Origin: a virus
IMG/VR virus record: IMGVR_UViG_3300032213_001531
Coordinates: 40,994-104,993 of that record
Reading direction: 5' to 3' (one strand)
DNA length: 64,000 bases
Both the position numbers and the translations under genes were made by a program. The notes beneath the pieces are model-generated. The model saw only the letters and a list, made by a program, of their open reading frames with translations. It was not told the origin of the DNA and searched no databases. This document shows positions 4,982 through 22,720 of the stretch, one piece after another. Each line of letters begins with the position of its first letter. Positions within the stretch are counted from its first letter, which is position 1.

Positions 4982-5509
4982 TTACACCGCCTCATATATT
5001 GTATCACTTAATACTATTCCAGAACTTAAAATTTGAACTTCAACCTGCTCATCTTGTTGCAAGTTTATGACATTAATAATTATATTGCCAGTTTCAGGTT
5101 CAAGATAAACAATTTTGCAGTTAGGAACCTGCTCTATGTTTGGGGCTGTTCCAATTAGTGTATAGCCAGTTCCACAATCTGGAACCTTGTTCTCAAAAGA
5201 TATTGGAAAGTTTTTAAAATAGGCTAAATCCGCATCCTGCAACGCAAGGATGTTTTGAGGATTATACTGAAAGTTAATAGCAGCTAAATTTTTAATTGCT
5301 TGATATACAACATCTTGCCCATTGACTAAGTCGTGTCTGGCAATATTAATCATCTCTTGCCCACCTATGTCTTCAAAGGTAAGGTAGAATTGTATTTCTT
5401 GTGGTGGTAGAGAATCTTCTAGAATAATTAACTCTGGGATTGCCACCTTTACCGCCACAGAAGGCTTAGAAGGGGTATTAGACGCTAGATTAGCCGTTGC
5501 TTCAGTCAT
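4982..5509 (-). CDS. minor tail protein
   Basis: Coupled ORF in tail operon. Confidence 0.55.
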   Translation of the reverse strand: MTEATANLASNTPSKPSVAVKVAIPELIILEDSLPPQEIQFYLTFEDIGGQEMINIARHDLVNGQDVVYQAIKNLAAINFQYNPQNILALQDADLAYFKNFPISFENKVPDCGTGYTLIGTAPNIEQVPNCKIVYLEPETGNIIINVINLQQDEQVEVQILSSGIVLSDTIYEAV

Positions 5510-8500
5510 TATGCCACCTCACTTAAAAACACTGTCATATCAGGACCATCTGGGCTTTTGCTGTATTGAATATTGTATACTACGTATCGCTTAGATATGT
5601 CTCCTAGTTTATTTATAGATTTTTCATTATAGTCTATATTAACAATATCTCCTAATTGTAATGTTGGGTTAGCAAAAAGCTTTATACCTACAGACTTTCT
5701 AGGCTTCATAATTTTTGAAATAATCCACTTCATTAATGAATTTGCAGAATCTTGTGTTTGAATGTATTCTGCCTCAAGAGAAAAATCTTTTTTCCCATAT
5801 GTCATCCTACTCATTTTGATATCTTCATAGTCTTTTGTTAGCTTTAAGGGTGATGAGACAACACTGTCTCCATTAAACTCAAGGCCAGAAAAGCTACTAT
5901 TCTTAGAAAAATACTGATCAACAGTCAAGGTATTTTTTGTTTCTTGTGTGAATGTAACTCCCTGAATCTTTAGATAGTTTCCAGAAGTTTCATCTAAAAA
6001 TAATATAGAGTCCGTTGTATTAAAGATTAAAAACTCTGCACCGTATGCCCCTGCTCTAAAACCAGAAACAGTATATCCCCTAAGTCTATTAAAGGTTGGA
6101 GATAATTTAGCAAAAAGTGCTGGGAACGCTTTATCATATTTAATATTAAAAGATGCAACCTCTCTCATAATTGTTCCAAACTCATCAAAGAATATATTAT
6201 AGCGTAAAGGGTCTGAAGAACTGATGCCAGACAAATAGCTATTTTGAACTATTCCACTAATCGCATATTTTCTAAATGATTCACTTGCATTAATCTCTTT
6301 ATTTGCAAATGCAGAGCTTACTGGGGTGTCTAAAGCAAAGCCAGAATTTTGGCTATAGTTTTGTGTTAGCGCATAAACATGCTCAAACATGACTCTTGAA
6401 GATCCACGAACAAACATTGCCATATTATTATACTCTGGCAAAGGGTCATTATCAACTATTCTGGCTACAATATTTTCATTAATAAACAGATAGAAAACTT
6501 TCTTAGATCCTAAATTTTCATACTCAACAGATAGATCATAGACAGTTGTTGGGGAGTCCCCAATAAGTCTACCTTGACCAGTAAACAAGCCGTCATCTAC
6601 GGTAACACCAAGGAGTCCTTGCCATAGTGTTTCTGGAATAGCTTCGCCAGTTACTGAATCCTTTTTAATTTTATAAAAGATAACATCATTAAGATTTGCA
6701 TCTAAGTTTTTACTACGACTGTTTGTACCAAGTGCAATCAACTCAAAGTAGTATCCATTGTTTGTTGTTGGATTTAGCAATACTCCAAGCCCACCAGATC
6801 CACCAGAAATGTTGATTGGTTCATTAGGCGTTGTTCCATCAACAGTATAATTGATTGTACTTCCAACGGCAGTCTGAACAACATTAGTATCATTTTCAAT
6901 TCTTCCAACAATTCTCATTCTTGTTCCAAAGTGTTTAAATTTATTGTCTAATGGCCTATGAACATATGAAATAAAATCTAAAGGTTTTTCTGTTGTATTA
7001 AAAGATGGGCCATTCATCACTAATGCAGAAGACTGAACTGTTCCTCTTATCGGAGTAGTCTTCTTATTATTTTCTGATTCTGCAGTTTTAAATGAAGAAG
7101 CATAATTTTTTATTATTCCATTTCTTGTTGTTTTAACTGCTAAAGCATTGTTAACTCCTGCTGCGCCTATTCCTGTAGTTGGTAATTTTTGTAACTCTAA
7201 GTCTGCATTAACCAAAGCCGTTTGTGGAGGTAGAGTTATTTTAAATTTAGTTTCGTCAACAATTTCTGTAACTTTATTAACTACAGATAAGTCTAAAAGC
7301 CCAGTAGACAAAGCTGAAGTAAGGTTTACCCTTTGCCCCACCTTAACTAATGTTGTGCTACTTGCAGTAATAACATTTCCAACTGAGGTAACTCCAGTAA
7401 GGGTAACAACATCCTGATTTCCAAATAAATATTCAGAACGCATTGTGCAGCCCTTAACATTTTTATTATCTGACCAGTATGGATTTAATCCTGCAGTATG
7501 TGCTGTTGCAAAAGTTCCAAACTGTCTTCTTCCATGTTTAGCCACTGGACCATTTTTTAGTTTTGTTACACCATTTACTTCTTCATAATTTGGTTCAGAA
7601 TAGATTCTCAACCTGCCAGTTTTATACATTTTTCCATTAAATGGTAGTTGTGAAAAATATCTTTGATACTCTTCAGTGTTTTGAACCCAAACATTTCCAA
7701 GACTGTTTAGTGATACGCTAATGGTATAAAGGTCTTGTCCATTTGCTGTCACTGTTTCAAGTAGTCGTTCTGCTCCAGGTATGTTATATTCAACAGCATC
7801 GTACTTAATGATTTCTCCGTTAGCGTATAGGTATCCATTATTTCTTGACAATAAGCTAATGCCCTCGCCTAAATCAATTATATTATTTACAACCTGATTG
7901 TTTACAACATAGGGGATAGAGTTAGCAAGATCAGAGTTTAGTGGAATTGCCGATAACGCATAAGATGATTGAGTTCCTGCTGTCTCATTTTGAGCCTGAG
8001 TATTTTCGCTTGCTCCAACCTCCCACAAAAGTGCTGGCTTGTATCTCCAAGTTTTTGCATTATCTTCACCCTGACTAGTTTGATCTATAGAAGACAAAGT
8101 TCTTTGAATATATCTAGAAGTATAATTAATTAAACCATCATTATAAACATTGCTGTCTTGTGAAGATATTTCAATAATGTTAGCAATCTTATCTTTATTA
8201 GTTTTATTTTTTATTGCACCATCCTTAACCTGATCTGAAGACCCATAAAGAGTCATACTTGTTTCTCTTTGTGTTGCGGTTGGCATCATGTACTCTTTAC
8301 TCATTAAAATAAAATTATTGTATTCATCAAAAAACATTGCGGTTTGTGTAGAGATAGCCAATTGCTGCAAGACTTCTGCAACACTGATGTCTGGTTGTAC
8401 AAAGAAATAAGGGATTATAGACTCTGATTCTCCAGAAATTCTTTTAAAGGTATAGTTTGAAACACCTATAGCATCCATTAAAATAGAAACTGCTGAAGAA

Positions 8501-10089
8501 AAAGATATATCTTTAAGTAAAAGTTCTGGGGCTTTAATTGATTCTAAATAAAAATATAAATCTCTAAGCTCTAGACTAACTGTTTTGCTGGAGTTGTTGC
8601 TAACTAAAAAGCCATCAGAGTATAAAGTTTTTAGTGGTACGAAGTAGTCCCACCCATTAACCTCTTCAATAACTTCATAGAATTTAACCTGAATATACCT
8701 TGAGTTATATTTACTAATAATGCTTGTAGAATTGTTTTCATTAAAAGCATCATCATAATCAAAGAATTCAACTGAGCCATTAGACGCCAAGAGTTGTCCA
8801 ACTGGCAAACCACTAGACCCTAAATCTGAAGCAATCTTGTTTACCGAGTAGTTCAAAGTTTTTTCTGTAAGGTCCACAGATAGTCTAGGAGATAACTCAA
8901 TTAGATCAAAGGTTGATTGATTTGTATTCATTGATTCAACTACAACTCTTAAACCTTTAACATACTCAAACTCTCTGTATCTTGTTAGGCTGTCTGTTGG
9001 ATTTAAAAATGATAGTGGGCTTGTTACGTCAGTTACAAAATTTGTTAGTCTTGTAACAGTCTCTTCGTGAATTTGCCAAGCATATTCTGGAGTAAACGTA
9101 TCATATCTTAAGTTAGGTTGATTCCAAATATAAAATGTTCCAATGTCTGTTTCATTTGCTGTAATTAAATAAGCATAACCATTAACAGACTTTGCAGGTA
9201 AAAGATTAGCAGAAGAATACTTTTCAGCAAATACAAAAATATCTTTATATTGATTTGGAACCTTAAGTCCATACTCAATTTCTAAATATCCATCTGATTT
9301 AATGATTGGAGATCCATCTGATCTTAAATCTTGTGGCTTAAAAGATATAGCATCTACCCAGCTATTGTTTTTTAAATACTGAATTTTCCATTTTTTTGGA
9401 GTGGTTTTATTTACATCTCCGTAGTATGGGTCAGCAAATGAGCTACCTCTGTTTGTAAATGGGCCAAGATTTATGTCTCCAACATTTGTTTGCATTTTTA
9501 CAACAATTCTGTTTGTCGGAACAGCATCCTTATAAACTATAAAAGGAACACTGTCTGAAATTTTATACTCGTTATTGTGTAAACTAGAAACGCCATAAGA
9601 GTAACCATTTTCAGTTCTATAAGAAGTCCAGTATTTAAATGCATCTGTTTTATCTGGCATGTAATATCTTGGGCGTTGAGCCATAAATATATTTGGATTA
9701 TGTATAAAAAATTTACCAGGGAAGAAAGATGATTTATTTATTCCAGATCTTGGTCTAAATGGTTTAAAGCAATCCTCTAATGAATATAAAAATTTATTTT
9801 TTTCTTTTGTTTGGACTAGGGTAAACGGAGTTTCTGTCTCGTCAACTCCTCCATCAATCAAGATATCTGCATCGGTTGCTCCAGTATAAAAATTTCCAGA
9901 ATCTCCTGCATCAAATGTGTTTGGCAACGTTGAATAAGTTGTTCCAGTTTCTGCAGGTCTATATCTGTAATTACCAATAAGGCTAATGTTACTAGCAATA
10001 TTCATATTCCACTCACCAATAATCGATGATCTGCTTTTAATAACAGATGATGTTTCTAGGTGGTTTTTTAATTCATCACTCTTAAACAT
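5509..10089 (-). CDS. large tail/baseplate hub protein
   Basis: About 1526 aa (start MFKSDEL, TAATG overlap); second gene after tape measure; C-terminal ANPTLQLGDIVNI hub-like motif. Confidence 0.7.
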   Translation of the reverse strand: MFKSDELKNHLETSSVIKSRSSIIGEWNMNIASNISLIGNYRYRPAETGTTYSTLPNTFDAGDSGNFYTGATDADILIDGGVDETETPFTLVQTKEKNKFLYSLEDCFKPFRPRSGINKSSFFPGKFFIHNPNIFMAQRPRYYMPDKTDAFKYWTSYRTENGYSYGVSSLHNNEYKISDSVPFIVYKDAVPTNRIVVKMQTNVGDINLGPFTNRGSSFADPYYGDVNKTTPKKWKIQYLKNNSWVDAISFKPQDLRSDGSPIIKSDGYLEIEYGLKVPNQYKDIFVFAEKYSSANLLPAKSVNGYAYLITANETDIGTFYIWNQPNLRYDTFTPEYAWQIHEETVTRLTNFVTDVTSPLSFLNPTDSLTRYREFEYVKGLRVVVESMNTNQSTFDLIELSPRLSVDLTEKTLNYSVNKIASDLGSSGLPVGQLLASNGSVEFFDYDDAFNENNSTSIISKYNSRYIQVKFYEVIEEVNGWDYFVPLKTLYSDGFLVSNNSSKTVSLELRDLYFYLESIKAPELLLKDISFSSAVSILMDAIGVSNYTFKRISGESESIIPYFFVQPDISVAEVLQQLAISTQTAMFFDEYNNFILMSKEYMMPTATQRETSMTLYGSSDQVKDGAIKNKTNKDKIANIIEISSQDSNVYNDGLINYTSRYIQRTLSSIDQTSQGEDNAKTWRYKPALLWEVGASENTQAQNETAGTQSSYALSAIPLNSDLANSIPYVVNNQVVNNIIDLGEGISLLSRNNGYLYANGEIIKYDAVEYNIPGAERLLETVTANGQDLYTISVSLNSLGNVWVQNTEEYQRYFSQLPFNGKMYKTGRLRIYSEPNYEEVNGVTKLKNGPVAKHGRRQFGTFATAHTAGLNPYWSDNKNVKGCTMRSEYLFGNQDVVTLTGVTSVGNVITASSTTLVKVGQRVNLTSALSTGLLDLSVVNKVTEIVDETKFKITLPPQTALVNADLELQKLPTTGIGAAGVNNALAVKTTRNGIIKNYASSFKTAESENNKKTTPIRGTVQSSALVMNGPSFNTTEKPLDFISYVHRPLDNKFKHFGTRMRIVGRIENDTNVVQTAVGSTINYTVDGTTPNEPINISGGSGGLGVLLNPTTNNGYYFELIALGTNSRSKNLDANLNDVIFYKIKKDSVTGEAIPETLWQGLLGVTVDDGLFTGQGRLIGDSPTTVYDLSVEYENLGSKKVFYLFINENIVARIVDNDPLPEYNNMAMFVRGSSRVMFEHVYALTQNYSQNSGFALDTPVSSAFANKEINASESFRKYAISGIVQNSYLSGISSSDPLRYNIFFDEFGTIMREVASFNIKYDKAFPALFAKLSPTFNRLRGYTVSGFRAGAYGAEFLIFNTTDSILFLDETSGNYLKIQGVTFTQETKNTLTVDQYFSKNSSFSGLEFNGDSVVSSPLKLTKDYEDIKMSRMTYGKKDFSLEAEYIQTQDSANSLMKWIISKIMKPRKSVGIKLFANPTLQLGDIVNIDYNEKSINKLGDISKRYVVYNIQYSKSPDGPDMTVFLSEVA

Positions 10090-10784
10090 TACACTTCTTC
10101 CAATGTACAAGAAACATTCCAGAAGTCATAGTTACTTCCACCACGCTTAACGACAGTATAACTAAAATCTGAAATAAACATTTCTATTAATTCATTATAT
10201 TGTCCAAGGTGTGCGTAAGCTAAATTGTCTTTACCAAAATTAGAATACTTATCATAAGCAAGGTATACCCAAAAAGAACCTTTATGGCTATCATACCAAT
10301 CTACAAGATCTACTCCCCCTGCTCCACCATCAGTGGTGTATTCTTGATTTTGTATTGTAACATTTGGAAGTTGTGAGAATGACGCATCTGTTCCTGGCTC
10401 TCTTAAACCTTCATCAATTAAAGATGTTTTTCCAGATGAGTTAAATGATGGATTTAAACCATGAGATCTAGATGGAAGCATGTTCCAAGATGTACCAATA
10501 GTTAGTTTGTCAGCAATATGATATGAGCGCATACGACCATTAATCATTCTTTCACGCTTTTCAATTCTGTTGTTATTAAAATTAATCTCTCCTCTATTAT
10601 CATCAGATAATATTAAGAATTGATCTAGCAAAGATTGATCTGATATACCAGTAGTATCAGCTTTTACTTCATAGCCGTTGGGAACATAAAGACCATTAGT
10701 AAGGGTTCCTGAGTTATTAGCCCAAAGCATTGCTTGTGGTCTAGCATACTTTCTTCTACCATTGATATATGTTTCTGTTGCCAT
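10089..10784 (-). CDS. distal tail (Dit-like) protein
   Basis: Immediately downstream of tape measure; ends WNVSCTLEEV. Confidence 0.6.
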   Translation of the reverse strand: MATETYINGRRKYARPQAMLWANNSGTLTNGLYVPNGYEVKADTTGISDQSLLDQFLILSDDNRGEINFNNNRIEKRERMINGRMRSYHIADKLTIGTSWNMLPSRSHGLNPSFNSSGKTSLIDEGLREPGTDASFSQLPNVTIQNQEYTTDGGAGGVDLVDWYDSHKGSFWVYLAYDKYSNFGKDNLAYAHLGQYNELIEMFISDFSYTVVKRGGSNYDFWNVSCTLEEV

Positions 10785-13700
10785 TAAAATCTACTCCCTC
10801 GAATTTTTTGTGAATCTATCTGTTTAATTTGAGCCATAACTGATCTAGCAATTTCATCAGGATTCGCATCTGACTTAACGTTTACGCTAATACTATAATT
10901 ATACACTGCGTCGCCTACTGAATCTCCATTATTGATTGCTTTCATCTTGTCCGCACCATGAGTGTTAACAGCATACTTACTCATTACAAATTCTCCTGGA
11001 GTAAGCATTGCTGGTACTGTATCTGTTCCCATAGCATAACCGCCTGAAGCAAAGAACTGAGGAATTAATCCACCTGAAGATTTAGCAGCAAAACCAGTAC
11101 TAAAGTTAAACGGAGTAGGCTGGCCATCTTTATAATTAATTCCGTCTTTGTTACCAGTAAAAGGCTCCCAGCTATCAGTTTTTCTTCTATAGATAAGCGC
11201 TCCAACTCCTGTGTCTGTATAAACATCACCATTCTTATAATCATTTCCCCATACTGTATAGCTAGTCTGATTTGGTGATCCAATTAGTGGTTCAGAAAAT
11301 GTTAACATTGTTGCTGGATCATTTGCATTAGATGTTGTACTTGATGTTGTTGAAGAAGATGAAGATGTTGTTGAAGAAGATGAAGATGTTGTTGAAGAAG
11401 ATGAAGATGTTGTTGAAGAAGATGTTGTTGAAGAAGGGGAGGCTGTTGAAGTATTTCCAGATGTTGAATTTTTAGAGGCTATGGCTTTAGCTAATAAAGC
11501 ATTTGCTTTTGCTAACCTATCAGAGTTCTTGGCTAAGAGTGCTGCATTTTGTTCTATCAAAGCATTTAAATTTTCTGCAATAGAATTTGATATTGACATG
11601 CCTGATTCAATAAGCTTTAAATTATTTTCTGCTTTAGTAATTGCATCTTGAGCAGTTTGCAATTCTGCAAGCCTTCCCTTATTCATATAATCACCAAAAC
11701 GATCTGACATGTCAGCATAAACTTGTTTTGCGTTATTGACAGCTGCAACTCCTTCATCATAACCTACAGGCTTAGTGTTTGCATTATTATTTAAAGCTGC
11801 ATCTGCTGCTGCAAGAGCTGCGTCTAAAGCTGCTGTTGCCTGAGCGTCTATTGCATCTGCTGCATCTTGTGCTGCTTGTGCCATTGCTACTGCTGCTGCA
11901 GCTGCTGCGATGGCAGCGTTAGCTGCATCTTCCGCAATTTTAAGTGCTGCGTTAGCTGCTGCTGTATCTGCGTCTGCTGCTGCTTGTGCTTCTGCAAGAG
12001 CTTTTTCGGCTGCAGCTTTTTCTGCTGCAGTTACTGCCTCTGCTTTAATCTTGAGTGCTGCTGCAACAAGGGCGTCTGCCTCTGCCTTAGATTTTTCTGC
12101 TGCAGCTTTGGCATCAGCAATAATTTTGTCAGCAGCGGCTTTTGCATCCGCAGTAATTTTATCTGATGCAGCTTTAGCATCTGCTTCTGATTTAGCTACA
12201 TTTGCTGTGCTTCCAGAATTAGTAACAATGGTTTGTGCAGTAGTCATTATCTTGGAGTCTTTTGCAGGTGTTGCTGCATAGGCACCAATTTTTGTCATAA
12301 TTGATTCCCATTGTGCATTGATTGCTGTTGATGCTGCTAATAATGCAGCAAAGGCAGTATCTAAATCTTTTTTAGATAGATCATATGCTTTTACCTTAGC
12401 TTCAATTGCAGCCCAAGCATCTTTATTTTTTCCAAGGACAGTAGTTTCTTCAACTAATTTATCAAGTCTTGCTTGAATAGTTTCATTCTCGGTGTTTAAG
12501 GCAGCAATCATTCTTTCTCTATCTACAACACTATCTTTAGTAATTTTAGCAATTTCATTTTCATAAGTCCGAATCTGCTTTAAGTTATTTTCTCTTAGCT
12601 GTTCTAACTCATATATAGTTTTAGTTTTAGATTTAATACTATCTTGAATTGCTATTTTTCTAGGATCTGTTTCTAAAGCGTAAATGTCTTGAGAAATTTG
12701 ATACTGCTTTTCTTTAATTTGATCTTGAGTAAGGCCCTGAGTTGCTACAAGCCTATCTAGTTCATTTTTTCTGGCTAGTTCAAAAGATTTTTGTGCTGCA
12801 TTAGAGTATAAATCTGCGCTTGCTTTTCGCATATCCTGCATTGCTTTTCCTGCTGCAGAAATATCTCCGCTAGTTAAAGCATCTGCTAAGCTAATCTGTT
12901 TTTCTTGTTGTGATAAAATTGCATCATTAATCTCTTTAACTGTTGTTAGGGATTCTGCTTGCTGATCGTAACGTTTATTAATTTCTTCTGCAGCATGATT
13001 AATAAGATCTAAATCATGAGATAAGGCACTAGATTGATCTTGCAATGCTTGAATAGGCTCATTAAACTGAACATCAATTTGATGCTGTAGATCATTAATC
13101 TCTTTCTGATAATCATCAATCTTTTGACTAATATTAAGAGAAACTGCTGCTTGAATATCATTAATCTTATACTGAAGTTGCTCTATCTGTGCTTCATATG
13201 GGCGGAGTTGGCTTTGTAATTCTTTAATCTTTGTCTCATTAGCAGAAAGTTGTGCTACATCTTTAGTGCTTCTAGAATCTACACCAGTCTTAATTAGATC
13301 TTCCTGTACCGCAAACATTTGGTTAACCATATCAAGACCAGAAGAAGCAACTTGAGCATAGTCTCCCTTGTTAAAGTTGATTTGAATATCAATTAGTTTC
13401 TTAGCTTCGATGTCTTTCAAGAACTCAGAAATTGCTCCTGTTGAACCTTCAATAGCTGCTATGTCAATTTTGCCATCTTTAATGTTTTGGGTGAACTGTT
13501 TTAGCATTGCAGGGTTTCCAAGTACTGCGTCAATTTGCTCTACAGAATACCCCATAGACTTCATTGCACCTACTACTTCTGGAGTTTTTGCAAATACATC
13601 AAACTCTGCATTCTTTGTAAGGGTGTCAGTTATAACCTGCATCTTTTCCATTGCACTATTGGCTTCAGCAATATCTTTAATAAACTTCTTCATTTCATCT

Positions 13701-16700
13701 GAACCTGCAGCACCAAGGGTTCCAGCAGCAATAGCTGAAGCAAGAGATTGATCTTCAATTACTTTAAGTGCATCGGTAACAGACATTCCTGCACCTCTTA
13801 AAATCTCAAATGCTTCTCTTTGTTTTTTAATGTTGTCTATACTTTGGGCTGCACCAAATTGAGCCATACCAACAACTACTGAATTAAAGGCTTCGGACAA
13901 CCCTAGTAAGTCTTCAGTTATTCCAATGACGTTTCCTTTATCGTCTAGCTTGAATGGTTTTTGTTTATCCTTTTTACTTGGGTTTACATCTGAGTTTTTA
14001 AAAGCTTCAAACTCTTCTGCTGACATTCCAGATATTGCATCCATGAGTCCTGAAGATACTCCACCCTCTAGCATTATTTGCTGTAGGCCCTTAAACTTTG
14101 CAAACATTCTGCTAAGACCGCCTTCAGCACCTTTACTATTTTCAAAAATAGCCATGATAGATTTTAATGGGGTAAGAGCATTAAAAGCTGAATCTCTAAA
14201 TAGTTTTAGCTTCATTCCTAAATCCTCTAGAAAAGAATATGCTCCCTTTAATGTATCTGCAGCTTCTTGTGCAGCTAGCTTTTTTAGATCAGCAGTCTTT
14301 GGACCATAGATAGAATCCAGTCTTTCTTTTAGTAACTTATCCAAAGTGCTTTTAGCAATACCTGGGTTTGCTTTACTTAACTGATCTATTTGTGCTTGTA
14401 TGAGAGCTGCTGAGTTTGCTAATGGAAGAGGAATATCTTTCCAAAGTCCTTTTTTCTTAAACGCATTAATTAATTCTGCATTCAACTCTTGTTGGATGTT
14501 ATCTGATATCAACAACTGATTTAAAGTAACTGATGCTTCTAGCTGTAGTGTTGGATCATAACTACTTAATAGATCCCAATTTTTTACTGCAGCATCAAGT
14601 GCTTCATTTGGGCTTTTCCCTTTTAACTTTAATTCAGCTTGATACGCAATTAGCGCTGGTTTAGTAAGCTTTCCTCCTGGGAAATGTTTTCTAAGGGCAT
14701 CAATTTCTTTTCCAAGTTTTTTGAGTACGGGAATGTCATCTGGATCTGATTCTATATTTAAATCTATTCTAAACTCTGGAGGGAATTGAATAAAGTCTTC
14801 TAACATTGAGTAGAATTCTCTAGCTTGTTGAGGGCCTTCTTTGCCATTAAAAGTACCAGCAACATTGACTACAGTATTAATGTTTTCTTGATCTGATAAA
14901 TTTTGAAGAATCCAGCCAAGAGAATCCATCTCTTTAGCTCCTTGGCCTCCTAACATTAATTTCCAAGTTGTTTCAACATTTTTTCCAGTTGCTATAAAGT
15001 TCTCAATTAAAGCTTTTGCAGATCCAGCAGAAATGTCACCAGCTACGACTGATGCTTGAACCATAACTCCAATTTTTGTTACATCTTGAGTTGTTTTTGC
15101 TTTTAATCCTTGAATAATCCTTACTTGATTCTGCATTTCAGCAATATATTCTGCTTGCGCTGCAGTAAATTCACCACTATTACTATCGTAGGAATCTCTT
15201 CTTGCTTGAATTTCTGCTACTCTTTTTTCTGACTCTGCTAGTTGTTTCTTTAATTCTTTTCTTTCTTCTGAAGAAATTCCAGCTTCTTTTGGAATCAGTT
15301 TTGAATCTGGATTTAGCAATGCACTAAGTTCTGTTGCTGCAAGCTTTTCTGGACCTACGGCATCTTTATATTTATCATCAAAGGCTGTCTTGTATGCTTC
15401 TGCATATTTAACCTTTGCATCTTTGCCACTAATGTTGTCCAAGAATCCAGTAGCTCGATCTACAACGTCTACCCCTTGATTTCTTAACTCTTGTTGATCT
15501 TGAAGGTTTTGATCATTAAGATCTTTAATCTTCTTTTCAATTTCAAGTCTTTTTTCTGCAGTCTTAACGGCCTCTTTTTCTTTAGTAAGTTTTTCAATTT
15601 GAGCATCAGTTTGCATTTGTAGTAGATCCATAGATTGTTGAACTTGTGCTAGTGACTGAATTGAATTACCTGCTACTGCTCCAGCAACTGCTCCTACAGC
15701 TTTCTTCTCTCTACCTTGTTGATACTTTCTAAGAGCTAGATCTGCAGCAAGTGTTGTTGCTAATATAATTGCTCCAGGAAGTACTCCTGCGCCAGTTGCA
15801 GAAGCACCTGTTCCTAATGCTGCTGCTCCTCTTATAACTCCTGCGCCAAATCTTGCCTTTCCTAAAGTTCCTGCTATTTGTGACTCTTTTGCAAAAGTTG
15901 CTGCAGCAGGTAGCGATCTAGCCCCAGCTATAACCCCTGTTTTATCAAGTTGACTAGCAATACGGGCGCCAAGAAGAGCGCCACCGACTGTGCTTCCTGC
16001 AAGCTCAAACCCCTCACGTTTATTGATTCCAGTCCTTAGTCCAACAGCCCCTGCTCCAGGCACATTCTGCATGAGGTTAGCAAACCATCCGCCCATTTCT
16101 TTTTCAACAACATCACTAAAAATATTCTGCATTTGAGTAGTAAGTTGTTTTTGATTTTTTAATATCTTTAATTGAACCCCAATAGGGTTATCTTTTAGAT
16201 TTTTTCCATCGGGGCCGATGATTTCTCTTAAAATTCCTCTAGCTTCAATCTCTAAAGATTGATCTCCCATATCTCTTGCAAGATTTACAATGATTGATTC
16301 TGCCTGATCTGCAGACAATACTCCTTGGCTTACTGCTGAAGCAAGTTTTGTTCCTAGTTGTTTAGCTGCACCTCTACCGTTTGATTTTGCGTAAGTGTTA
16401 AACTCAGCAATAAATTGTTTTCCAAATTCGCTACCTGAAAAATCTTTACCAAATGTTTGATCAATTGGAGTTATCTCAAGTCTATTTGCTTCTCTCTTCT
16501 TGTCCATAATTTGTGTTGCAGACATTGTTCCAAGGATAGATCCAAAACCTTCCAAAGACTCAATGGTATTTCCAATAGATTGTCCTTGTTTAACTCCATC
16601 AGCAATAGATTTTCTAATTGCCATGCTCTGCATTTTAAATGAAACGCCTAATGCTACTACTGTGGCAATCAATTTCTTTAGCGGTGAATTAAGAAGTGGC

Positions 16701-19700
16701 AATATCATTGGAAGCATAGATGCTCCCATAATTGCTGTCATGTGATTAGAAGCAAATTTTCCTGCTGTTGAATCAGGTGATCCTTGTGCAATTCCTTGAG
16801 CAAGCATAGGAATCATCATGGCTGCCATTCCTACACCCATCATTGTTTGAGATGATTTCATTCTTTGATCTTGTCTTGCATTAATTCTTTGTTCTTTATT
16901 TAATGCATTACCATCTTGATCGTGGGTTGCAACTTTTCCATACCCTGTCCAATAACCACCATGTGGCTTAGGACCGCTAGGTCCACCAGGACCAGCAGGG
17001 CCACCCATAGATGACAGGCGAGCATCAATCTTTCTAACTCTATCCATTGCTTTTGCGCTTGCTGATTGAACCCTAGCATTATTTGCAACTGCCTTAGTTC
17101 CAGTTACTACCGCCGTTCCAAACTTGCTAACTTGAGCTGTAGCTTTTCCAAGTACATCTGCTCCCTTTGAAGGTGGTGGTGTATTTGCTACTGGAGTTGC
17201 TCCCCAACCATCACCCTTATCAACCATGGTGTATCCAGGAAGAGGTCTTGGAACTCCACCCTTACCGCCTCTACCACTACCATGTTCAGGAATTGTTCCA
17301 TTAATCATTCCTGAAACTAATGAAGAATATTTGGCTGCAGCCTTGGCTGGAATGACTGCTTCTCCAGGAGATAGCATTGCTGGTTGAATATCTCCCGCAC
17401 CCTTTGGCCCTGGAACTGAAAAAATTCCTTTTGCTAATGCAAGAGTATCCGCTGGCATATAGTCTGAGTCTTTAAATTTCTGATTCTTGTAATATCCATC
17501 ATGAATTCTTTTCCTTAATAAATGTTCAGTAATTATATCTGTAGTTGTCCAAGTGTCTGCTTTATTTTTTGCACCCCAACCTTTATATTGATGTCTTTTA
17601 CTTTCTAATTTACTAAGTGCTATCAATGCTTCTTTTTCAGTTGTTACGTGAATTGCGCCCATCCTTTTTGAAAGTGCATTCATTCCAGAGTTTATAACTG
17701 TCTGATCTCTCACAACATTGTCTGCTGGCCAAAACTCTAAATCTCTATTTTTACCAGTAGCTTTTATATGGCTTGCTGCGATTCCACCTTCGCCAGATCT
17801 GACTCTCTCTATTGCAGTTTGAAAGTCTGGTGCTTTTAATACAGCAAGTGCATCTGCTTCTGAAATTTTTCCAGTATTAACAAGATTCTTCTTTACAGAA
17901 GCAAGCTCTTCTGCATAATAATTTAATAGCTTTTGTGCTGGTTTATTTTTACTAGGGTCAGCAAGAACTTTTTGCCATCTACTATTTACCTCTGGTGGAG
18001 TGGCTCTAGTTCTTGATCCTGACCAAGGATTTACATTTGCAAACAAACCTTTACCAGAAGCTGTTCCTATGTCTAATGGTTTACCGCTTTCTTTATACTT
18101 TAAAATTCTTGCTTCTAAAGCTTTTACTTTTTGTGCATAAATTGTTTTATCTGGATATGCTGCTTCAAACTCTTTCCATCTTCCTTCAAACTTAGCAGCC
18201 TCTGATGCTTTTACGGTCATAGATTGACCACCTATTTGAATTTGTGACATTCCAGACCCAAGGCTACTAATCTTAAATGAGGTGCCAGGAGGTAATGGGG
18301 TGAGTGGTAATCTTGTTCTAGATTCTAGACTAGCAACTGTTGCTGCTTCTTTTGCCCCTGAAACTTTTACTGCTGAAGCTGCGCCGTACATGCCCAGTCT
18401 TCCAGCCATGTATCCTGGAACTACTCCACCCTTAGCGAAACCATTTCCTTGTGCCCATTTAGAAAAACCTTCCATAAAGTCTTTATCAGATAAGGATGAG
18501 GCGTGTCCCTTTTGTCTTGCTCTTAATGTAATTTCATCTTCTATTTTTTTTATTGCTGCAGGAGTTAATGCTTTCTTTGGATTAGCAATTACTGATGAAT
18601 GAATCCCGTGAAGTTCTCTCCAGTTCGCACCCCTAGAATCCTCTAAGCGTCTAACCATGTCTTGATAAATACCCTGCTCTTCTTTATTTAACTTAAATCC
18701 TGCTATTGTTGCTTTAAGTCTTGGAAGAGTTTCATCGATCTCTCGTATCATTCTTGTATGGTATTCTTCTGCAGTCATTCCCTTTGGAATATTAGATGTT
18801 GCTTCAGCAAAGAATCTTTTTGCATTTGATCCCTTTACGCCAAGTAAATTTATACGAACCTGATCTTCAACGGATGGCATGCCTTTTGAATATGTTCTAA
18901 AACCAGATGCTGTATCAAAGACTCCAGCATTTCCAGCATCAACCATATTTCTACCAGACACATTTGCCATTTGGAGATCTTTGTCTCCTCTTACTCCAGA
19001 AGCTAAAAGTTGTGCAAAGTATTCATCTTCACTAAACTTGCCCGTTGGTTTTGCAAACTCAGGGTTGTAAGGGGCTTCAGATACAATAATTTTTCTTTTC
19101 TTTTGTGGATCCGTTGGATCAATCATTGTACGAATTGTGTGCTCTGGTGCTTTTAGTGGAAAGGCTTTGTTTGTAATAGTAGCCATTCTTTCCTCTGCTA
19201 AAGCAGCAGTCTCATCAACATATGGCTTAACAAATACCTTAGTTCCATCTGGCTTTTGATACAATCCGCCAATTCCTTTAACAGGAAATGAGTGCCCTGT
19301 GGTTGCTTCAAGTTGAACGCCAAAATCTGTTGGATCCATGTTAGCAAATCGACTTGCTTCAGTTCCTTTTCCAATTGACTCCATTGATAGTCTTGCTTTA
19401 CGTTGTATATTAACTGCTTTAATGCTTTTTGGCATACCCAAAAATAGTGGCATTCTTCCAAGTATATGACCTGGCAAAGTTCCGTCAATCATCTGTCCAA
19501 TAAATGGTGCATACTTCTTAGCCATGTCAGCAGGAATAACGGCTTCTCCAGGGGTTAGAAGGGCTGGGGTAGTATCTTTATTACCTGTTCCAGGAACACT
19601 TGTCACACCCTTGGCAAAACGTCTTGGAGGGGTAACTCTGCCCCTGCTTGGCATAAACATTCCAGGGTTTGTACTAGCAAAACTAGACATTGCAACTTTT

Positions 19701-21625
19701 GCTTCTCTGTAAGCATTAGTTAAGGCAACAAGGCTTGCTGACTCAAGGACATATGCGGAAGACAAAGATTTATGGGCTGTTGCAAGACTATTTGATACAG
19801 CAATATTTTCTAGCTCTTCATTGCTGAGGTACTGTGTTCCAAGGGCTGCATCTTTTGATCCATAAGCTAAACCTTGAAAACCTTTACGAATAAGATTAAA
19901 CATCTTCATTAAGTTAGCTAAACCGTTAGCAACAAGACCAACGGTCATAAGTAGAATTGGACCAATACCAGCAACTGCTGCTACAATAATTGCTACTGCT
20001 TTTTTAATTCCTTCAGGAGCATTGTTAAATTTATCAAACAGCTTAACAAAGAAATTAATAACTGGAGTCAATACCTTTGCAAACAATTCACCAATTGGAG
20101 CAATAGATGCTTTAAGTTTTTCAATTGCTGCTTGCATTTTATACATAGGAGATGATTCCTGTGTTTTTAATTCTCTCTCAGATAACAGCGCCAACTCTTC
20201 TGCAGATGCAGATGCCAATTTTAAAACTCTGCTTGCTTGGTTTCCTTCTTTTGTTACGTTATTTAAAAGTGCTGAGATTCTTGAAAACTGATACTTGCCA
20301 AAAACTTTTTCAATTGTTTGTGCTCTTTGTAGGTCTGTTAGTGGTTGTAATGCTTGAGCAAAAGAAACAACAGTATTTTTTAAGTTACCCTGATTGCTTT
20401 CAATAATTCCCTTAAGGTTAATGCCTAGCTTTGAAGTTGCTTCAGTTGCTGCTTTTGATGGATTAATTAAAGATGCAAGACCAGACTTAAGTGCGTTAGC
20501 TCCTTGCTCTGCACTAATACCACCTTCTTTCATTGCTGTAAGGAAGAATGCTAAATCTTTTACATCTCCGCCAAGCTGTTTAATAACTGGAGCAACTCTT
20601 GGAATGGCATTAGATAAATCTTCAAGGCTTAAAACAGTTTGGTTTTCAACAGAGTTAAGAAAGTCCATTGTTTTAGATAGTTCGCCACTACCAATAGCAA
20701 AAGCATTTTGTAATGCAATTGTTGTTTCTAAAGCTTTGTCTTGTGCAACTCCACCAAGGACTGCTAATTTGTTTGCTTGTCTTACTACCGTATCAAGTTG
20801 CTGCCCTGAGTTACCTGCTGCTGCTGCATCTGCAGCCATCTTGATTGTTTCAGAAACTTTAAGTCCATACTTTGTATACTCTTTAGCAATATCTTTCATG
20901 TTTTTAAGGGCTTTGTCAGTATCATCTTGTGTTGTAAAGATGTCTCCATAAACCTTTTTAAATCTAATTGCTTGAGTTTCAATTTCTTTAAATGCTTTTA
21001 TTGCTGATCCTGCGAACATAGCTAAAGGAATTGTAAAACCAACCATAAGCTGGCGACCAGCCCACTGTGTATTCTTACCAAAGTTTAGAAGTTTTGTAGC
21101 ACCATCGTCAAGCAGCTTATTCATTATCTGTTGACGTTGAATAGTCATTGACATTCTTGTTAATGCGTCGTTATAATTAAGTGCTTTTGGTGTAATTCGC
21201 ATTGAGCGGATTGCACCCTGTGCGTCTTTACCTAGTTGGACATACTGGCTTTGAAGAGCCTTAACTCTTTTTTCAGCAAGGTTGCTAATTGTTTGAAATT
21301 CTCTAGCGTAATTCTTTCCAAATGTTTTAGTGGAAGCCATGCCATATCGATAGTATTCACGAAGTGATAGCTTGCCAGCTTCCAGACGTTTTGAAAACTG
21401 ATCTGTAGAAGTTGCCATCTTGCCCATTGAGGCATTAAACATGCCTGTGGCATTAATGTTATGTAAAAGTGATTTTGAAAAATCGGCTTGAGCTAGTGAT
21501 GCAGCTTTTGTGCCGACGATCATGGAACGGTTAAGTGCAGATATCTGCTTGTCTAGCCCACGTAGTGCGGACATAGCTTGTGTTGTATCAATATTAATTA
21601 AAATATTGCTGTTTACATCTGTCAT
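10784..21625 (-). CDS. tail tape measure protein with inserted cargo domains
   Basis: 3613 aa; TP901-type tape-measure region near N-terminus, hydrophobic segments, long coiled coils; follows tail chaperones. Confidence 0.92.
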   Translation of the reverse strand: MTDVNSNILINIDTTQAMSALRGLDKQISALNRSMIVGTKAASLAQADFSKSLLHNINATGMFNASMGKMATSTDQFSKRLEAGKLSLREYYRYGMASTKTFGKNYAREFQTISNLAEKRVKALQSQYVQLGKDAQGAIRSMRITPKALNYNDALTRMSMTIQRQQIMNKLLDDGATKLLNFGKNTQWAGRQLMVGFTIPLAMFAGSAIKAFKEIETQAIRFKKVYGDIFTTQDDTDKALKNMKDIAKEYTKYGLKVSETIKMAADAAAAGNSGQQLDTVVRQANKLAVLGGVAQDKALETTIALQNAFAIGSGELSKTMDFLNSVENQTVLSLEDLSNAIPRVAPVIKQLGGDVKDLAFFLTAMKEGGISAEQGANALKSGLASLINPSKAATEATSKLGINLKGIIESNQGNLKNTVVSFAQALQPLTDLQRAQTIEKVFGKYQFSRISALLNNVTKEGNQASRVLKLASASAEELALLSERELKTQESSPMYKMQAAIEKLKASIAPIGELFAKVLTPVINFFVKLFDKFNNAPEGIKKAVAIIVAAVAGIGPILLMTVGLVANGLANLMKMFNLIRKGFQGLAYGSKDAALGTQYLSNEELENIAVSNSLATAHKSLSSAYVLESASLVALTNAYREAKVAMSSFASTNPGMFMPSRGRVTPPRRFAKGVTSVPGTGNKDTTPALLTPGEAVIPADMAKKYAPFIGQMIDGTLPGHILGRMPLFLGMPKSIKAVNIQRKARLSMESIGKGTEASRFANMDPTDFGVQLEATTGHSFPVKGIGGLYQKPDGTKVFVKPYVDETAALAEERMATITNKAFPLKAPEHTIRTMIDPTDPQKKRKIIVSEAPYNPEFAKPTGKFSEDEYFAQLLASGVRGDKDLQMANVSGRNMVDAGNAGVFDTASGFRTYSKGMPSVEDQVRINLLGVKGSNAKRFFAEATSNIPKGMTAEEYHTRMIREIDETLPRLKATIAGFKLNKEEQGIYQDMVRRLEDSRGANWRELHGIHSSVIANPKKALTPAAIKKIEDEITLRARQKGHASSLSDKDFMEGFSKWAQGNGFAKGGVVPGYMAGRLGMYGAASAVKVSGAKEAATVASLESRTRLPLTPLPPGTSFKISSLGSGMSQIQIGGQSMTVKASEAAKFEGRWKEFEAAYPDKTIYAQKVKALEARILKYKESGKPLDIGTASGKGLFANVNPWSGSRTRATPPEVNSRWQKVLADPSKNKPAQKLLNYYAEELASVKKNLVNTGKISEADALAVLKAPDFQTAIERVRSGEGGIAASHIKATGKNRDLEFWPADNVVRDQTVINSGMNALSKRMGAIHVTTEKEALIALSKLESKRHQYKGWGAKNKADTWTTTDIITEHLLRKRIHDGYYKNQKFKDSDYMPADTLALAKGIFSVPGPKGAGDIQPAMLSPGEAVIPAKAAAKYSSLVSGMINGTIPEHGSGRGGKGGVPRPLPGYTMVDKGDGWGATPVANTPPPSKGADVLGKATAQVSKFGTAVVTGTKAVANNARVQSASAKAMDRVRKIDARLSSMGGPAGPGGPSGPKPHGGYWTGYGKVATHDQDGNALNKEQRINARQDQRMKSSQTMMGVGMAAMMIPMLAQGIAQGSPDSTAGKFASNHMTAIMGASMLPMILPLLNSPLKKLIATVVALGVSFKMQSMAIRKSIADGVKQGQSIGNTIESLEGFGSILGTMSATQIMDKKREANRLEITPIDQTFGKDFSGSEFGKQFIAEFNTYAKSNGRGAAKQLGTKLASAVSQGVLSADQAESIIVNLARDMGDQSLEIEARGILREIIGPDGKNLKDNPIGVQLKILKNQKQLTTQMQNIFSDVVEKEMGGWFANLMQNVPGAGAVGLRTGINKREGFELAGSTVGGALLGARIASQLDKTGVIAGARSLPAAATFAKESQIAGTLGKARFGAGVIRGAAALGTGASATGAGVLPGAIILATTLAADLALRKYQQGREKKAVGAVAGAVAGNSIQSLAQVQQSMDLLQMQTDAQIEKLTKEKEAVKTAEKRLEIEKKIKDLNDQNLQDQQELRNQGVDVVDRATGFLDNISGKDAKVKYAEAYKTAFDDKYKDAVGPEKLAATELSALLNPDSKLIPKEAGISSEERKELKKQLAESEKRVAEIQARRDSYDSNSGEFTAAQAEYIAEMQNQVRIIQGLKAKTTQDVTKIGVMVQASVVAGDISAGSAKALIENFIATGKNVETTWKLMLGGQGAKEMDSLGWILQNLSDQENINTVVNVAGTFNGKEGPQQAREFYSMLEDFIQFPPEFRIDLNIESDPDDIPVLKKLGKEIDALRKHFPGGKLTKPALIAYQAELKLKGKSPNEALDAAVKNWDLLSSYDPTLQLEASVTLNQLLISDNIQQELNAELINAFKKKGLWKDIPLPLANSAALIQAQIDQLSKANPGIAKSTLDKLLKERLDSIYGPKTADLKKLAAQEAADTLKGAYSFLEDLGMKLKLFRDSAFNALTPLKSIMAIFENSKGAEGGLSRMFAKFKGLQQIMLEGGVSSGLMDAISGMSAEEFEAFKNSDVNPSKKDKQKPFKLDDKGNVIGITEDLLGLSEAFNSVVVGMAQFGAAQSIDNIKKQREAFEILRGAGMSVTDALKVIEDQSLASAIAAGTLGAAGSDEMKKFIKDIAEANSAMEKMQVITDTLTKNAEFDVFAKTPEVVGAMKSMGYSVEQIDAVLGNPAMLKQFTQNIKDGKIDIAAIEGSTGAISEFLKDIEAKKLIDIQINFNKGDYAQVASSGLDMVNQMFAVQEDLIKTGVDSRSTKDVAQLSANETKIKELQSQLRPYEAQIEQLQYKINDIQAAVSLNISQKIDDYQKEINDLQHQIDVQFNEPIQALQDQSSALSHDLDLINHAAEEINKRYDQQAESLTTVKEINDAILSQQEKQISLADALTSGDISAAGKAMQDMRKASADLYSNAAQKSFELARKNELDRLVATQGLTQDQIKEKQYQISQDIYALETDPRKIAIQDSIKSKTKTIYELEQLRENNLKQIRTYENEIAKITKDSVVDRERMIAALNTENETIQARLDKLVEETTVLGKNKDAWAAIEAKVKAYDLSKKDLDTAFAALLAASTAINAQWESIMTKIGAYAATPAKDSKIMTTAQTIVTNSGSTANVAKSEADAKAASDKITADAKAAADKIIADAKAAAEKSKAEADALVAAALKIKAEAVTAAEKAAAEKALAEAQAAADADTAAANAALKIAEDAANAAIAAAAAAVAMAQAAQDAADAIDAQATAALDAALAAADAALNNNANTKPVGYDEGVAAVNNAKQVYADMSDRFGDYMNKGRLAELQTAQDAITKAENNLKLIESGMSISNSIAENLNALIEQNAALLAKNSDRLAKANALLAKAIASKNSTSGNTSTASPSSTTSSSTTSSSSSTTSSSSSTTSSSSSTTSSTTSNANDPATMLTFSEPLIGSPNQTSYTVWGNDYKNGDVYTDTGVGALIYRRKTDSWEPFTGNKDGINYKDGQPTPFNFSTGFAAKSSGGLIPQFFASGGYAMGTDTVPAMLTPGEFVMSKYAVNTHGADKMKAINNGDSVGDAVYNYSISVNVKSDANPDEIARSVMAQIKQIDSQKIRGSRF
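11343..11436. repeat. 21-bp tandem repeat (GATGTTGTTGAAGAAGATGAA) x3 plus partial copies, encoding a Ser/Thr linker in the tape measure
   Basis: Seen directly. Confidence 0.9.
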
Positions 21626-21655: not shown

Positions 21656-21982
21656 TTATTCTTGTGAAGCAAGTGCAAGTAATGCTGAATCATTTAGATT
21701 GATACCTGATGCTGCTTCAATGATCTTGTATACTGTTGGCAGATCAACTAAATCTTCCAAATCAGCAACAGAGTAGTCTGCGTCTGCTTTATATTGTTTC
21801 ATTGCAATGTGGACACATTCAATTAGGATGTCCATTGATTTTTCGTTATCTGTTGCTACTGCTGTTAGTCCTTCAAAAGATTTCATAAACGGTCTAAGTA
21901 AAGAAATCTTAAGTGGCTGTGCGTCAATTTTTGTTCCGTCGATAAAGACGATCTCATTCTTTTCAATTGGCTTAGTTGCCAT
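21656..21982 (-). CDS. tail assembly chaperone (gpG-like)
   Basis: Start MATKPIE after GGAGG; between major tail and tape measure; paralogous to N-half of 22034..22720. Confidence 0.75.
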   Translation of the reverse strand: MATKPIEKNEIVFIDGTKIDAQPLKISLLRPFMKSFEGLTAVATDNEKSMDILIECVHIAMKQYKADADYSVADLEDLVDLPTVYKIIEAASGINLNDSALLALASQE

Positions 21983-22033
21983 GTATAACCTCCTGTGGTT
22001 GTAAATCAATTATACCATAGGCAGGCTTATTTT

Positions 22034-22720
22034 TTAGTCTATTTTTTCGTAAGACAATCCCATACCAATACCAAAACCAGCCTTTTGTGCATTTACTCCT
22101 TGCAATGCTAAAACGTCTTTTGAGTTAGCTGCTGTGCCACCGCTGTAAACTCTAGCTTTTAGCTCTTCCCAGGCATTTCCAGTACTCTTATTACTTGCCT
22201 TATCTAGGTCAACACCTTGCATTGCTGCTAAAAATTTCTGTTCATCGTATCTTGATTCTCTTTTACTTTCAAGAGTTGCTATTAGTTCTGGCATTGATAA
22301 AGACTCTTCTAATTGATTGTAGTCTTTCCAGATGCCCAGCAAAAATAACTCAGACTCTAGCTTTGCTAAATCTAATGTTTCCCAAGAAGATCCACTTTCT
22401 ACTGCTTGCTCTTTAACGCTTTGCTCTGAATCTTTATCTACTTTAATACCTGCTGCAATATCTATTAGTTTATATATTGTAGGAAGGTCAAAGTTATCTT
22501 CTAGATCCTCTACCGTCTTTATTTCTGGCATATATTGTTGCATGGCAATTCTGGCACACTCTACTAGATTTTCAATAGTGTCTTGATCCCCTTGAGATTT
22601 TCTAACAATTTCAAAAGCAACCATAAATTGTCTTAAATATTTTATTTTTAATGGAGTGATATAAAGTGGCGTTCCATCAACTAAATAAAGGACTTCACTA
22701 TTGTATATTCTCGTAGCCAT
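22034..22720 (-). CDS. tail assembly chaperone (gpGT-like long form)
   Basis: G-like N-half plus C-terminal extension in one frame; directly after major tail gene. Confidence 0.75.
   Translation of the reverse strand: MATRIYNSEVLYLVDGTPLYITPLKIKYLRQFMVAFEIVRKSQGDQDTIENLVECARIAMQQYMPEIKTVEDLEDNFDLPTIYKLIDIAAGIKVDKDSEQSVKEQAVESGSSWETLDLAKLESELFLLGIWKDYNQLEESLSMPELIATLESKRESRYDEQKFLAAMQGVDLDKASNKSTGNAWEELKARVYSGGTAANSKDVLALQGVNAQKAGFGIGMGLSYEKID

Follow-up and report, generated by a model that had tools for sequence, protein, structure and literature searches.

A predicted protein-kinase-like domain carried as an optional cassette in the tape measure protein of an uncultured phage

The window analysed here is a stretch of 64,000 nucleotides, positions 40,994 to 104,993 of the IMG/VR virus record IMGVR_UViG_3300032213_001531, which has a length of 104,993 bp and an estimated completeness of 97%. 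We focus on one gene of this window, which encodes a tape measure protein (TMP), and on a protein-kinase-like domain which this TMP is predicted to carry. According to the list of open reading frames (ORFs) and the translation, the gene is a single open ORF of 3,613 amino acids (aa) on the minus strand (Table 1). The Pfam family PhageMin_Tail matches aa 248-443 with an expectation value (E) of 1.5e-27, and 11 PHROG TMP families cover the first ~700-800 aa (best E 2.5e-91). In addition to these profile matches, the protein contains hydrophobic segments and its gene lies between putative tail chaperones and the distal tail genes, as is typical of a TMP. The ~100 aa at the C-terminus are conserved among related TMPs. 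The gene belongs to a morphogenesis block of the siphovirus type, in which the genes for portal, prohead protease and capsid are found upstream, while an ORF of 231 aa and then a minor tail protein of 1,533 aa follow downstream. No ORF of the block matches a tail-sheath family.

Between aa 741 and 1012, the TMP is predicted to form a compact bilobal protein-kinase-like (PKL) domain with a full catalytic set. The AlphaFold2 (AF2) model, built from an alignment of 40 sequences, reaches a predicted local distance difference test score (pLDDT) of 91.7 and a predicted template-modelling score (pTM) of 0.88. In the numbering of the model, the strands 31-35, 48-51 and 57-63 precede the helix 66-82, after which come the strands 91-96 and 106-113 and then helices. 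Lys800 is located on the strand 57-63 and Glu811 in the helix which follows it. The loop harboring Asp883 and Asn888 comes after helix 127-140, Asp896 is next, and the C-lobe is helical. The arrangement of the active site was judged from this order of secondary structures. Typical features of the PKL fold are present in the model: two lobes, a β3 lysine paired with an αC glutamate, and a D-x-x-x-x-N motif followed by D-x-G.

The model was compared with 48,161 representative chains using VIA-align, and all 50 matches listed are kinase-fold proteins. Best among them is CotH (5jda), with a Z-score of 12.1 over 215 aligned residues, a root-mean-square deviation of 3.8 Å and a sequence identity of 6%. 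It is followed by the phosphatidylinositol 4-kinase (PI4K) PI4KIIalpha (4pla, Z 10.0), MavQ (7m7a) and CtkA (3akk), both at Z 9.5, Golgi casein kinase (Z 9.4) and HipA (4pu3, Z 9.3). PI4KIIIbeta (Z 8.9), ATM (Z 8.8), HipT (7ab3, Z 8.7-8.8) and Vps34 (Z 8.3-9.0) score in the same range. A second look among the top 1,000 chains of Foldseek gave CtkA at Z 10.9, PI4KIIbeta at 10.4 and the N-domain of LepB at 9.5. Foldseek itself returned weak matches against the PDB (best E 2.8e-3), yet every listed one adopts a protein-kinase-like fold; the pseudokinases Pan3 and BIR2 are among the weaker ones. In BFVD, the best match is a protein of an uncultured phage annotated ‘PI3/4-kinase catalytic domain’ (E 1.4e-5). 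The next ones are large phage proteins annotated as ADP-ribosyltransferase (ART) or portal, and a head-morphogenesis protein scores far lower (E 0.075).

According to these models, the fold neighbours split into protein kinases (CotH, CtkA, Fam20, HipA) on one side and lipid kinases (PI4KII, MavQ, LepB) on the other. On the same basis, we would assign the domain to the atypical kinase assemblage as a family without a name, with CotH, CtkA and PI4KII as its nearest structural neighbours. We consider it very probable that it is a true kinase-fold enzyme domain.

Sequence comparisons with curated families remain silent. A segment of 400 aa containing the kinase gave no meaningful match in Pfam, PHROG, NCBIfam or the PDB, and a profile of 40 sequences of the domain found nothing in the PDB. 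The Pfam models PI3_PI4_kinase (PF00454), HipA and CotH match neither the segment nor the whole TMP even at E<=1. CotH (PF08757) is equally absent from a six-frame search of the 105-kb genome at E<=1, a search in which the positive-control genomes did match. The named neighbours in a language-model comparison are LepB_N, HipA_2 and PI3_PI4_kinase, all at 0.92, which we take as a lead only.

Relatives of the domain are nevertheless numerous. An exhaustive HMMER search over 1.84 billion cluster representatives (clustered at 50% identity) recovered 165 representatives at E<=1e-3, with E<=1e-30 for 140; in IMG/VR, the domain is present at 182 loci or more. Together with the invariant motif residues described below, the 165 cluster matches indicate that the domain is beyond chance. 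The relatives lie nearly all inside TMPs of 2,000-4,400 aa from uncultured phages, and their median length is 2,871 aa among the 150 matches listed. The N-terminal region of our TMP is common to 109 of the 126 kinase-bearing members of at least 1,500 aa, the other 17 being mostly truncated at the N-terminus, and PhageMin_Tail is present in distant kinase-bearing members too. Free-standing forms of 160-510 aa amount to just 11 short proteins, most of which come from contigs of 0.7-3 kb; contigs of 6.6-7.5 kb account for two. So few short proteins on such small contigs lend no support to a stand-alone kinase family. A tblastn search against 50,697 deposited phage genomes gave no match, hence no cultured relative is at hand. 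Among 185,579 species genomes, only two contigs of metagenome-assembled genomes (MAGs) match the domain, labelled Bifidobacterium sp. and Acidimicrobiaceae; the family is therefore not a common prophage cargo.

Residue conservation was counted in 133 full-length copies which are mutually <=50% identical by construction of the library. G777, G787, K800, E811, P827, Q872, N888 and D896 are invariant in all 133, while S779 and D883 are each found in 132 and G898 in 129. Among them are the Gly loop, β3 Lys, αC Glu, catalytic Asp, Asn and metal-binding Asp, which follow the order and the spacing of a kinase. The consensus of the catalytic loop reads R-G-D-K-D-L-x-x-x-N, in which the D-x-x-x-x-N spacing is that of ordinary protein kinases.

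An earlier note, made by a model from the letters of the window, had proposed a HipA/PI3-4-kinase-like domain embedded in the TMP. The peptides it quoted are present at TMP aa 784-812 and 873-898 (window 19276-18929) of the one continuous ORF of 3,613 aa, and its span 18600-19300 corresponds to aa 776-1008, most of the kinase domain. A kinase-fold domain embedded in a TMP is borne out by the PhageMin_Tail and PHROG matches, the AF2 fold and the structure matches, which are to kinases only. The note had asked whether the predicted fold is kinase-like and whether the catalytic residues persist in homologs: AF2, Foldseek and VIA-align all point to a kinase-like fold, and K800, E811, N888 and D896 are kept in 133 of 133 copies and D883 in 132. 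The likeness to HipA and PI3/4-kinases is seen in the fold (HipA Z 9.3, PI4KII Z 10.0-10.4), for which several further atypical kinase families reach similar scores. It does not extend to the sequence, since the HipA and PI3_PI4_kinase Pfam models do not match and the motif G-D-R-H-x-x-N is lacking. The remark that a glutamine in place of the usual histidine may alter activity has to be abandoned: position 885 is Ser in 54 copies, Gln in 30, Gly in 23, Ala in 12, Lys in 9 and His in 4 of the 133, and because it varies across the family this residue is not a determinant.

The kinase domain is part of a larger cassette whose borders emerge from the comparison with L100, a TMP which is 66% identical in its N-terminus and lacks the kinase. 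TMP aa 3-727 align to residues 6-729 of L100 and aa 1107-1847 to residues 772-1453. In this collinear alignment, ~42 aa stand in place of the 379 aa of the cassette. The N-terminal 700 aa of the TMP have more than 595 relatives in IMG/VR. Of the related TMPs at the best 80 loci, 66 are complete; in these and in the TMP of the window (n=67), we scored the presence or absence of the kinase. The kinase is present in 23 and absent from 44, with a median TMP length of 3,187 aa with and 2,514 aa without it. In other TMPs, it is located ~300 aa further along, behind a different insert. On a tree of the N-terminal region, its distribution needs at least 8 changes, 6 of which are forced by well-supported branches.

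The comparison with the nearest relative, L095, adds a second type of evidence. In blocks of 100 aa, the N-terminal 700 aa are 95-100% identical, the cassette 71-87% and the kinase 71-85%. Synonymous divergence (dS) is 0.75 in the kinase and 0.23 in both flanks. This higher dS suggests that the kinase allele is older than its surroundings and was replaced by recombination. The ratio of nonsynonymous to synonymous divergence (dN/dS) of the kinase is 0.23, and the allele appears to be maintained by purifying selection. Taken together, the alignments indicate that the cassette is accessory and exchangeable: it occurs in about one third of related TMPs and has undergone repeated gain and loss as well as recombination. 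Such repeated gain, loss and allele replacement suggests a function in an arms race.

Table 1. Features of the TMP gene and of its kinase cassette in the window
Feature	Window position	Strand	Basis
Tape measure protein (TMP) gene	10784..21625	-	uninterrupted ORF of 3,613 aa; Pfam PhageMin_Tail; 11 PHROG TMP families
First strongly hydrophobic segment, TMP aa 539-572, N-terminal to the cassette	19910..20011	-	Kyte-Doolittle, 19-aa window, peak 2.55
Module copy 1, ‘FAKG..VPG..PAxLxPGEAV’, TMP aa 664-724, directly upstream of the cassette	19454..19636	-	motif positions
Kinase cassette as insertion unit, TMP aa 728-1106	18308..19444	-	alignment to the kinase-less TMP L100
Predicted atypical protein-kinase-like catalytic domain, TMP aa 741-1012	18590..19405	-	AF2 model, VIA-align, residue conservation
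Gly loop G784/G786/G787, GIGGLYQKPDG from TMP aa 784	from 19276	-	translation
β3 Lys800, VFVKP from TMP aa 797	19226-19228	-	translation
αC Glu811, LAEERM from TMP aa 809	19193-19195	-	translation
Catalytic Asp883, GDKDLQMANV at TMP aa 880-889	18977-18979	-	translation
Asn888 of the kinase domain	18962-18964	-	translation
Metal-binding Asp896, MVDAGN from TMP aa 894	18938-18940	-	translation; Asp896-x-Gly898 at 18932-18940
Short ‘NGFAKGGVVPGYMAG’ element, TMP aa 1061-1075, C-terminal edge of the cassette	18401..18445	-	direct reading
Second insert, poorly conserved, TMP aa 1080-1395	17441..18388	-	few relatives
Module copy 2 (PGEAV), TMP aa 1392-1452	17270..17452	-	motif positions
Module copy 3 (PGEFV), TMP aa 3516-3575, near the C-terminus	10901..11080	-	motif positions

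The surroundings of the cassette are themselves modular. A module of ~55 aa, ‘F/LAxG..VPG..PAxLxPGE(A/F)V’, occurs three times in the TMP, and copies 1 and 2 bracket the kinase plus the second insert. In blastp comparisons this PAxLxPGE module cross-matches between related TMPs, and the PGE motif lies within 200 aa upstream of the kinase in 56 of 125 kinase-bearing TMPs. Judging from these positions, the modules may be recombination or processing sites. A motif ‘NGFxxGG’, similar to the NGFAKGGVVPGYMAG element, follows the kinase in many homologs. For the second insert, an alignment of 5 sequences shows an invariant Ser-His pair, an Arg and an Asn; the AF2 model from these 5 sequences (pLDDT 56.9) is uninterpretable.

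Other enzymes are found beside the kinase in related TMPs. In the related TMP L167 (L167:5247-6590, plus strand), the insert separating the kinase from the conserved N-terminus matches CTP_transf_like (PF01467), a cytidylyltransferase-like nucleotidyltransferase, with E 1.5e-5, above the cut-off, a second nucleotide-using enzyme at this location. P0139, a distant kinase-bearing TMP of 4,468 aa, has a Peptidase_M23 domain at aa 2198-2291, upstream of its kinase at aa 2852-3134. These two cases fit a general cargo site. When the inserts which occupy this site in ten related TMPs were scanned with Pfam, almost nothing was recovered besides the CTP_transf_like domain of L167.

Several further observations concern the TMP and its neighbours. 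Near the C-terminus of the TMP, a tract of 54 aa (aa 3392-3445, window 11291-11452, minus strand) is composed almost purely of Ser and Thr. The two genes directly upstream of the TMP gene (21656-22009 and 22034-22720, both on the minus strand) are paralogs: the first ~105 aa of each match phrog_10504, and an additional phrog_10474 domain is found in the longer gene. From these matches, the pair looks like the tail-chaperone G/GT pair, here as two separate genes without frameshift. The minor tail protein downstream (5509-10110, minus strand, 1,533 aa) is without a Pfam family and matches the PHROG minor tail protein family phrog_10359. Another ORF without a Pfam family (31340-35053, minus strand, 1,237 aa) is located directly upstream of the 136-aa ORF which precedes the portal gene.

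Some indications about the host are available. WhiB is characteristic of Actinomycetota and their phages. A gene of the WhiB family is present elsewhere in the same phage genome, outside the window (G000:C1:16527-16700, minus strand, locus L175), with E 5e-13, above the cut-off; of 14 control genomes scanned in the same way, Corynebacterium alone matched. No transfer RNA genes were found in the 64-kb window. Combined with the actinobacterial labels of the two MAG contigs, the WhiB gene suggests that the host is probably an actinobacterium with a single membrane.

How could a kinase in a tail protein be used? TMPs are metastable in the tail tube and, at infection, they are ejected into the envelope where they form a conduit for the DNA (PMC10770324). 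We infer an injected effector role from this ejection and from the precedent of phage P23-45, whose TMP is fused to a virion RNA polymerase. In the scenario that we propose, the domain would be an active ATP-dependent phosphotransferase. It would ride in the tail lumen as a part of the TMP, metastable and incompletely folded, and the ejected TMP would bring it into or across the cytoplasmic membrane of the probably actinobacterial, single-membrane host. Because a kinase needs ATP, the cytoplasmic face of this membrane is the only sensible site for it after ejection, and there, where ATP is available, it would refold. A host target, either a protein or possibly a membrane lipid, would then be phosphorylated ahead of any phage gene expression. 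The phage might benefit by taking over the cell, by countering its defences or by conditioning the site of entry. Of the hydrophobic parts of the TMP, the segment at aa 539-572 precedes the cassette and the next one, at aa ~1652-1670, follows it; another such segment spans aa 1943-1965 (the latter two located with the same 19-aa Kyte-Doolittle window as the first). From the sequence, a cassette placed in this way could form a loop which is exposed on a single side of the membrane. We lean cautiously towards the whole scenario, which combines an active kinase, its delivery and its action in the host.

Several points weigh against it. The sequence identity to every solved kinase is only 6-15% and no curated kinase profile matches. 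As the fold neighbours include protein kinases, lipid kinases and pseudokinases, the fold does not fix the chemistry. Two thirds of the sister TMPs are without the cassette, which is consequently not needed for tail assembly or DNA entry. We only infer that the kinase-bearing part of the TMP arrives in the cytoplasm, and outside this compartment there is no ATP. A folded domain of 30 kDa, in three or more copies, is too big for the tail lumen, so that unfolding and refolding must be assumed. Lastly, neither a protease domain nor a proven cleavage site able to release the kinase domain was found in the protein.

Among the other explanations, one retains the active kinase and moves its action to the producing cell, late in infection, where the phage tail, the TMP itself or host factors would be its substrates while particles are assembled; that it ends up in the virion would then be incidental. 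The TMP is indeed made in an ATP-rich cytoplasm long before ejection, and CotH, the best structure match, phosphorylates Ser-rich structural proteins during spore-coat assembly (PMC7821199). The Ser/Thr tract at aa 3392-3445 would offer a comparable target, but it occurs in this phage and L095 only and is not linked to the kinase across the 67 TMPs; for this lack of correlation, we reject the idea, suggested by CotH and its Ser-rich coat proteins, that the tract serves the kinase as an in-cis substrate. Moreover, a free-standing gene would suffice for late action, yet virtually every member is part of a TMP, and most of the few short ones come from small contigs. We regard late action as unlikely, albeit worth weighing. 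Slightly less likely still is a kinase fold which performs another chemistry or does not act on proteins. It might phosphorylate lipids (phosphatidylinositol, for instance), sugars or small molecules, or catalyse AMPylation or glutamylation in the manner of SelO or SidJ. Some of the closest folds do belong to lipid kinases, namely PI4KII (Z 10.0-10.4) and MavQ and LepB of Legionella (Z 9.5), and LepB_N and PI3_PI4_kinase accompany HipA_2 among the language-model neighbours at 0.92, a lead only. Actinomycetota make phosphatidylinositol, and the WhiB gene suggests that the probable host belongs to them. The protein kinases CotH, CtkA, Fam20 and HipA, however, score equal or higher, the Arg-His of the PI3/4-kinase catalytic loop is absent, and the sequence gives no sign of a membrane-binding surface.

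A catalytically inert module is improbable. Under this explanation, the insert would be a pseudokinase or a structural element which binds nucleotides or tunes TMP folding, tail length or the channel. It is common for kinase folds to take on a new role as scaffolds, and the weaker Foldseek matches include Pan3 and BIR2. The insert also adds ~380 aa to a length-determining protein, and the median TMP length is 3,187 aa with the kinase and 2,514 aa without it. Pseudokinases, though, are typically missing the Lys, the catalytic Asp or the Asp of DFG, whereas here the catalytic residues are conserved over 133 representatives of <=50% identity (D883 in 132, the others in all) and the dN/dS is 0.23. 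We give practically no credence to a chance resemblance of motifs in a low-complexity or coiled-coil stretch of the TMP without any real domain. Short kinase-like motifs can arise by chance in proteins as long as TMPs, but after the tests no support is left for this explanation: it is ruled out by the confident globular model (pLDDT 91.7), the family of 165 clusters, the invariant signature and structure matches to kinases only.

Returning to an injected, active kinase, the cassette keeps its catalytic residues (D883 in 132 of 133 copies), so that a kinase ready for use may enter the host together with the DNA, as a component of the virion. If true, phosphorylation of proteins or lipids would be added to the earliest events of infection, and TMPs would be modular carriers beyond their roles as ruler and channel-former. 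The family is abundant, being found in about one third of one very common lake-type phage lineage, and has no curated name. If the hosts are hard-to-culture freshwater Actinomycetota, the cassette may point to a host pathway which is relevant to phage resistance. In its most extended form, the proposal states that an active kinase enters with the ejected TMP and acts at time zero on a protein or on phosphatidylinositol, that the TMP, with its nucleotidyltransferase-like and peptidase inserts, is a recombination-driven platform for swappable enzymes, and that the kinases form a new family specific to phage tails. This extended form is tentative, and as a whole we would sooner doubt it than assert it.

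The closest structural relatives help to place the family. CotH (5jda, PF08757) is an atypical Ser/Thr(/Tyr) kinase of the Bacillus spore coat which shares the atypical fold, the reduced helical C-lobe and the motifs D-x-x-x-x-N and D-x-G. Like the TMP kinase, it is tied to a large assembly, whose structural proteins it modifies. It differs in that the identity is 6%, its Pfam model does not match here, and CotH is a free-standing bacterial or eukaryotic protein and not an insert in a TMP. The type II PI 4-kinases (4pla, 8a5x), MavQ (7m7a) and the LepB N-domain (4jw1) have the fold in common, with Z 9.5-10.4 over 183-217 residues. MavQ and LepB are Legionella effector kinases put into another cell by an injection machine, which resembles the delivery proposed here. 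In contrast, their targets are eukaryotic phosphoinositides, and for this group as a whole the TMP kinase shows no PF00454 match, no Arg-His of the G-D-R-H-x-x-N motif and no identified lipid-binding features. The toxins HipA and HipT (4pu3, 7ab3) and the secreted CtkA of H. pylori (3akk) also share the fold (Z 9.3, 8.8 and 10.9, respectively). These bacterial atypical Ser/Thr kinases are toxins or effectors which act on few key host proteins. Unlike this group, the TMP kinase has no HipA Pfam match and no antitoxin context, and it is located in a structural virion protein.

Pre-made enzymes are brought in by several phages, among them T4 with Alt, N4 and P23-45 with their virion RNA polymerases, and phages with MuF-fused toxins. 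Full-text searches of the literature gave no report of a tape measure protein that contains a kinase. Polyvalent and MuF-type phage effectors are multidomain proteins which are predicted to be delivered with the DNA and whose swappable domains include kinases of the Ser/Thr/Tyr type and ARTs (PMC5512222). Phage portal, MuF and ART fusion proteins are among the BFVD neighbours of our kinase model. The polyvalent-protein kinases are described as devoid of the whole C-terminal subdomain (PMC5512222), whereas in the present model helices continue beyond the D-x-G motif as far as residue 271, a comparison made by description only. Their carriers are other virion proteins, and tape measure proteins are mentioned nowhere in that publication (PMC5512222).

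As carriers, TMPs have precedents. Cell-wall hydrolases embedded in TMPs are also carried domains, but their site of action is the wall, outside the cytoplasm, and they do not depend on ATP. Sle1 is a TMP-related, modular and reconfigurable effector of a contractile injection system (CIS) and provides an experimental precedent for such a carrier (PMC13277306). The TMP scaffold as a reconfigurable carrier is the common point, while Sle1 is a CIS cargo in Streptomyces and not a phage TMP. A further precedent is gp96 of Thermus phage P23-45, a TMP of 5,002 aa with an active virion RNA polymerase (RNAP) as its N-terminal part, which its authors propose to be ejected with the TMP and to work at the entry pore (PMC10770324). 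Both are giant TMPs with a nucleotide-using enzyme, predicted in the present case, in the N-terminal third, acting in the cytoplasm in the case of gp96 and, as proposed, in ours. The enzyme of gp96 is a two-barrel RNAP of demonstrated activity which is essential, whereas the cassette described here has a kinase fold, is optional and is predicted from sequence. Enzymes fused to virion proteins are thus already known; the new element is a predicted kinase-fold domain inside a TMP.

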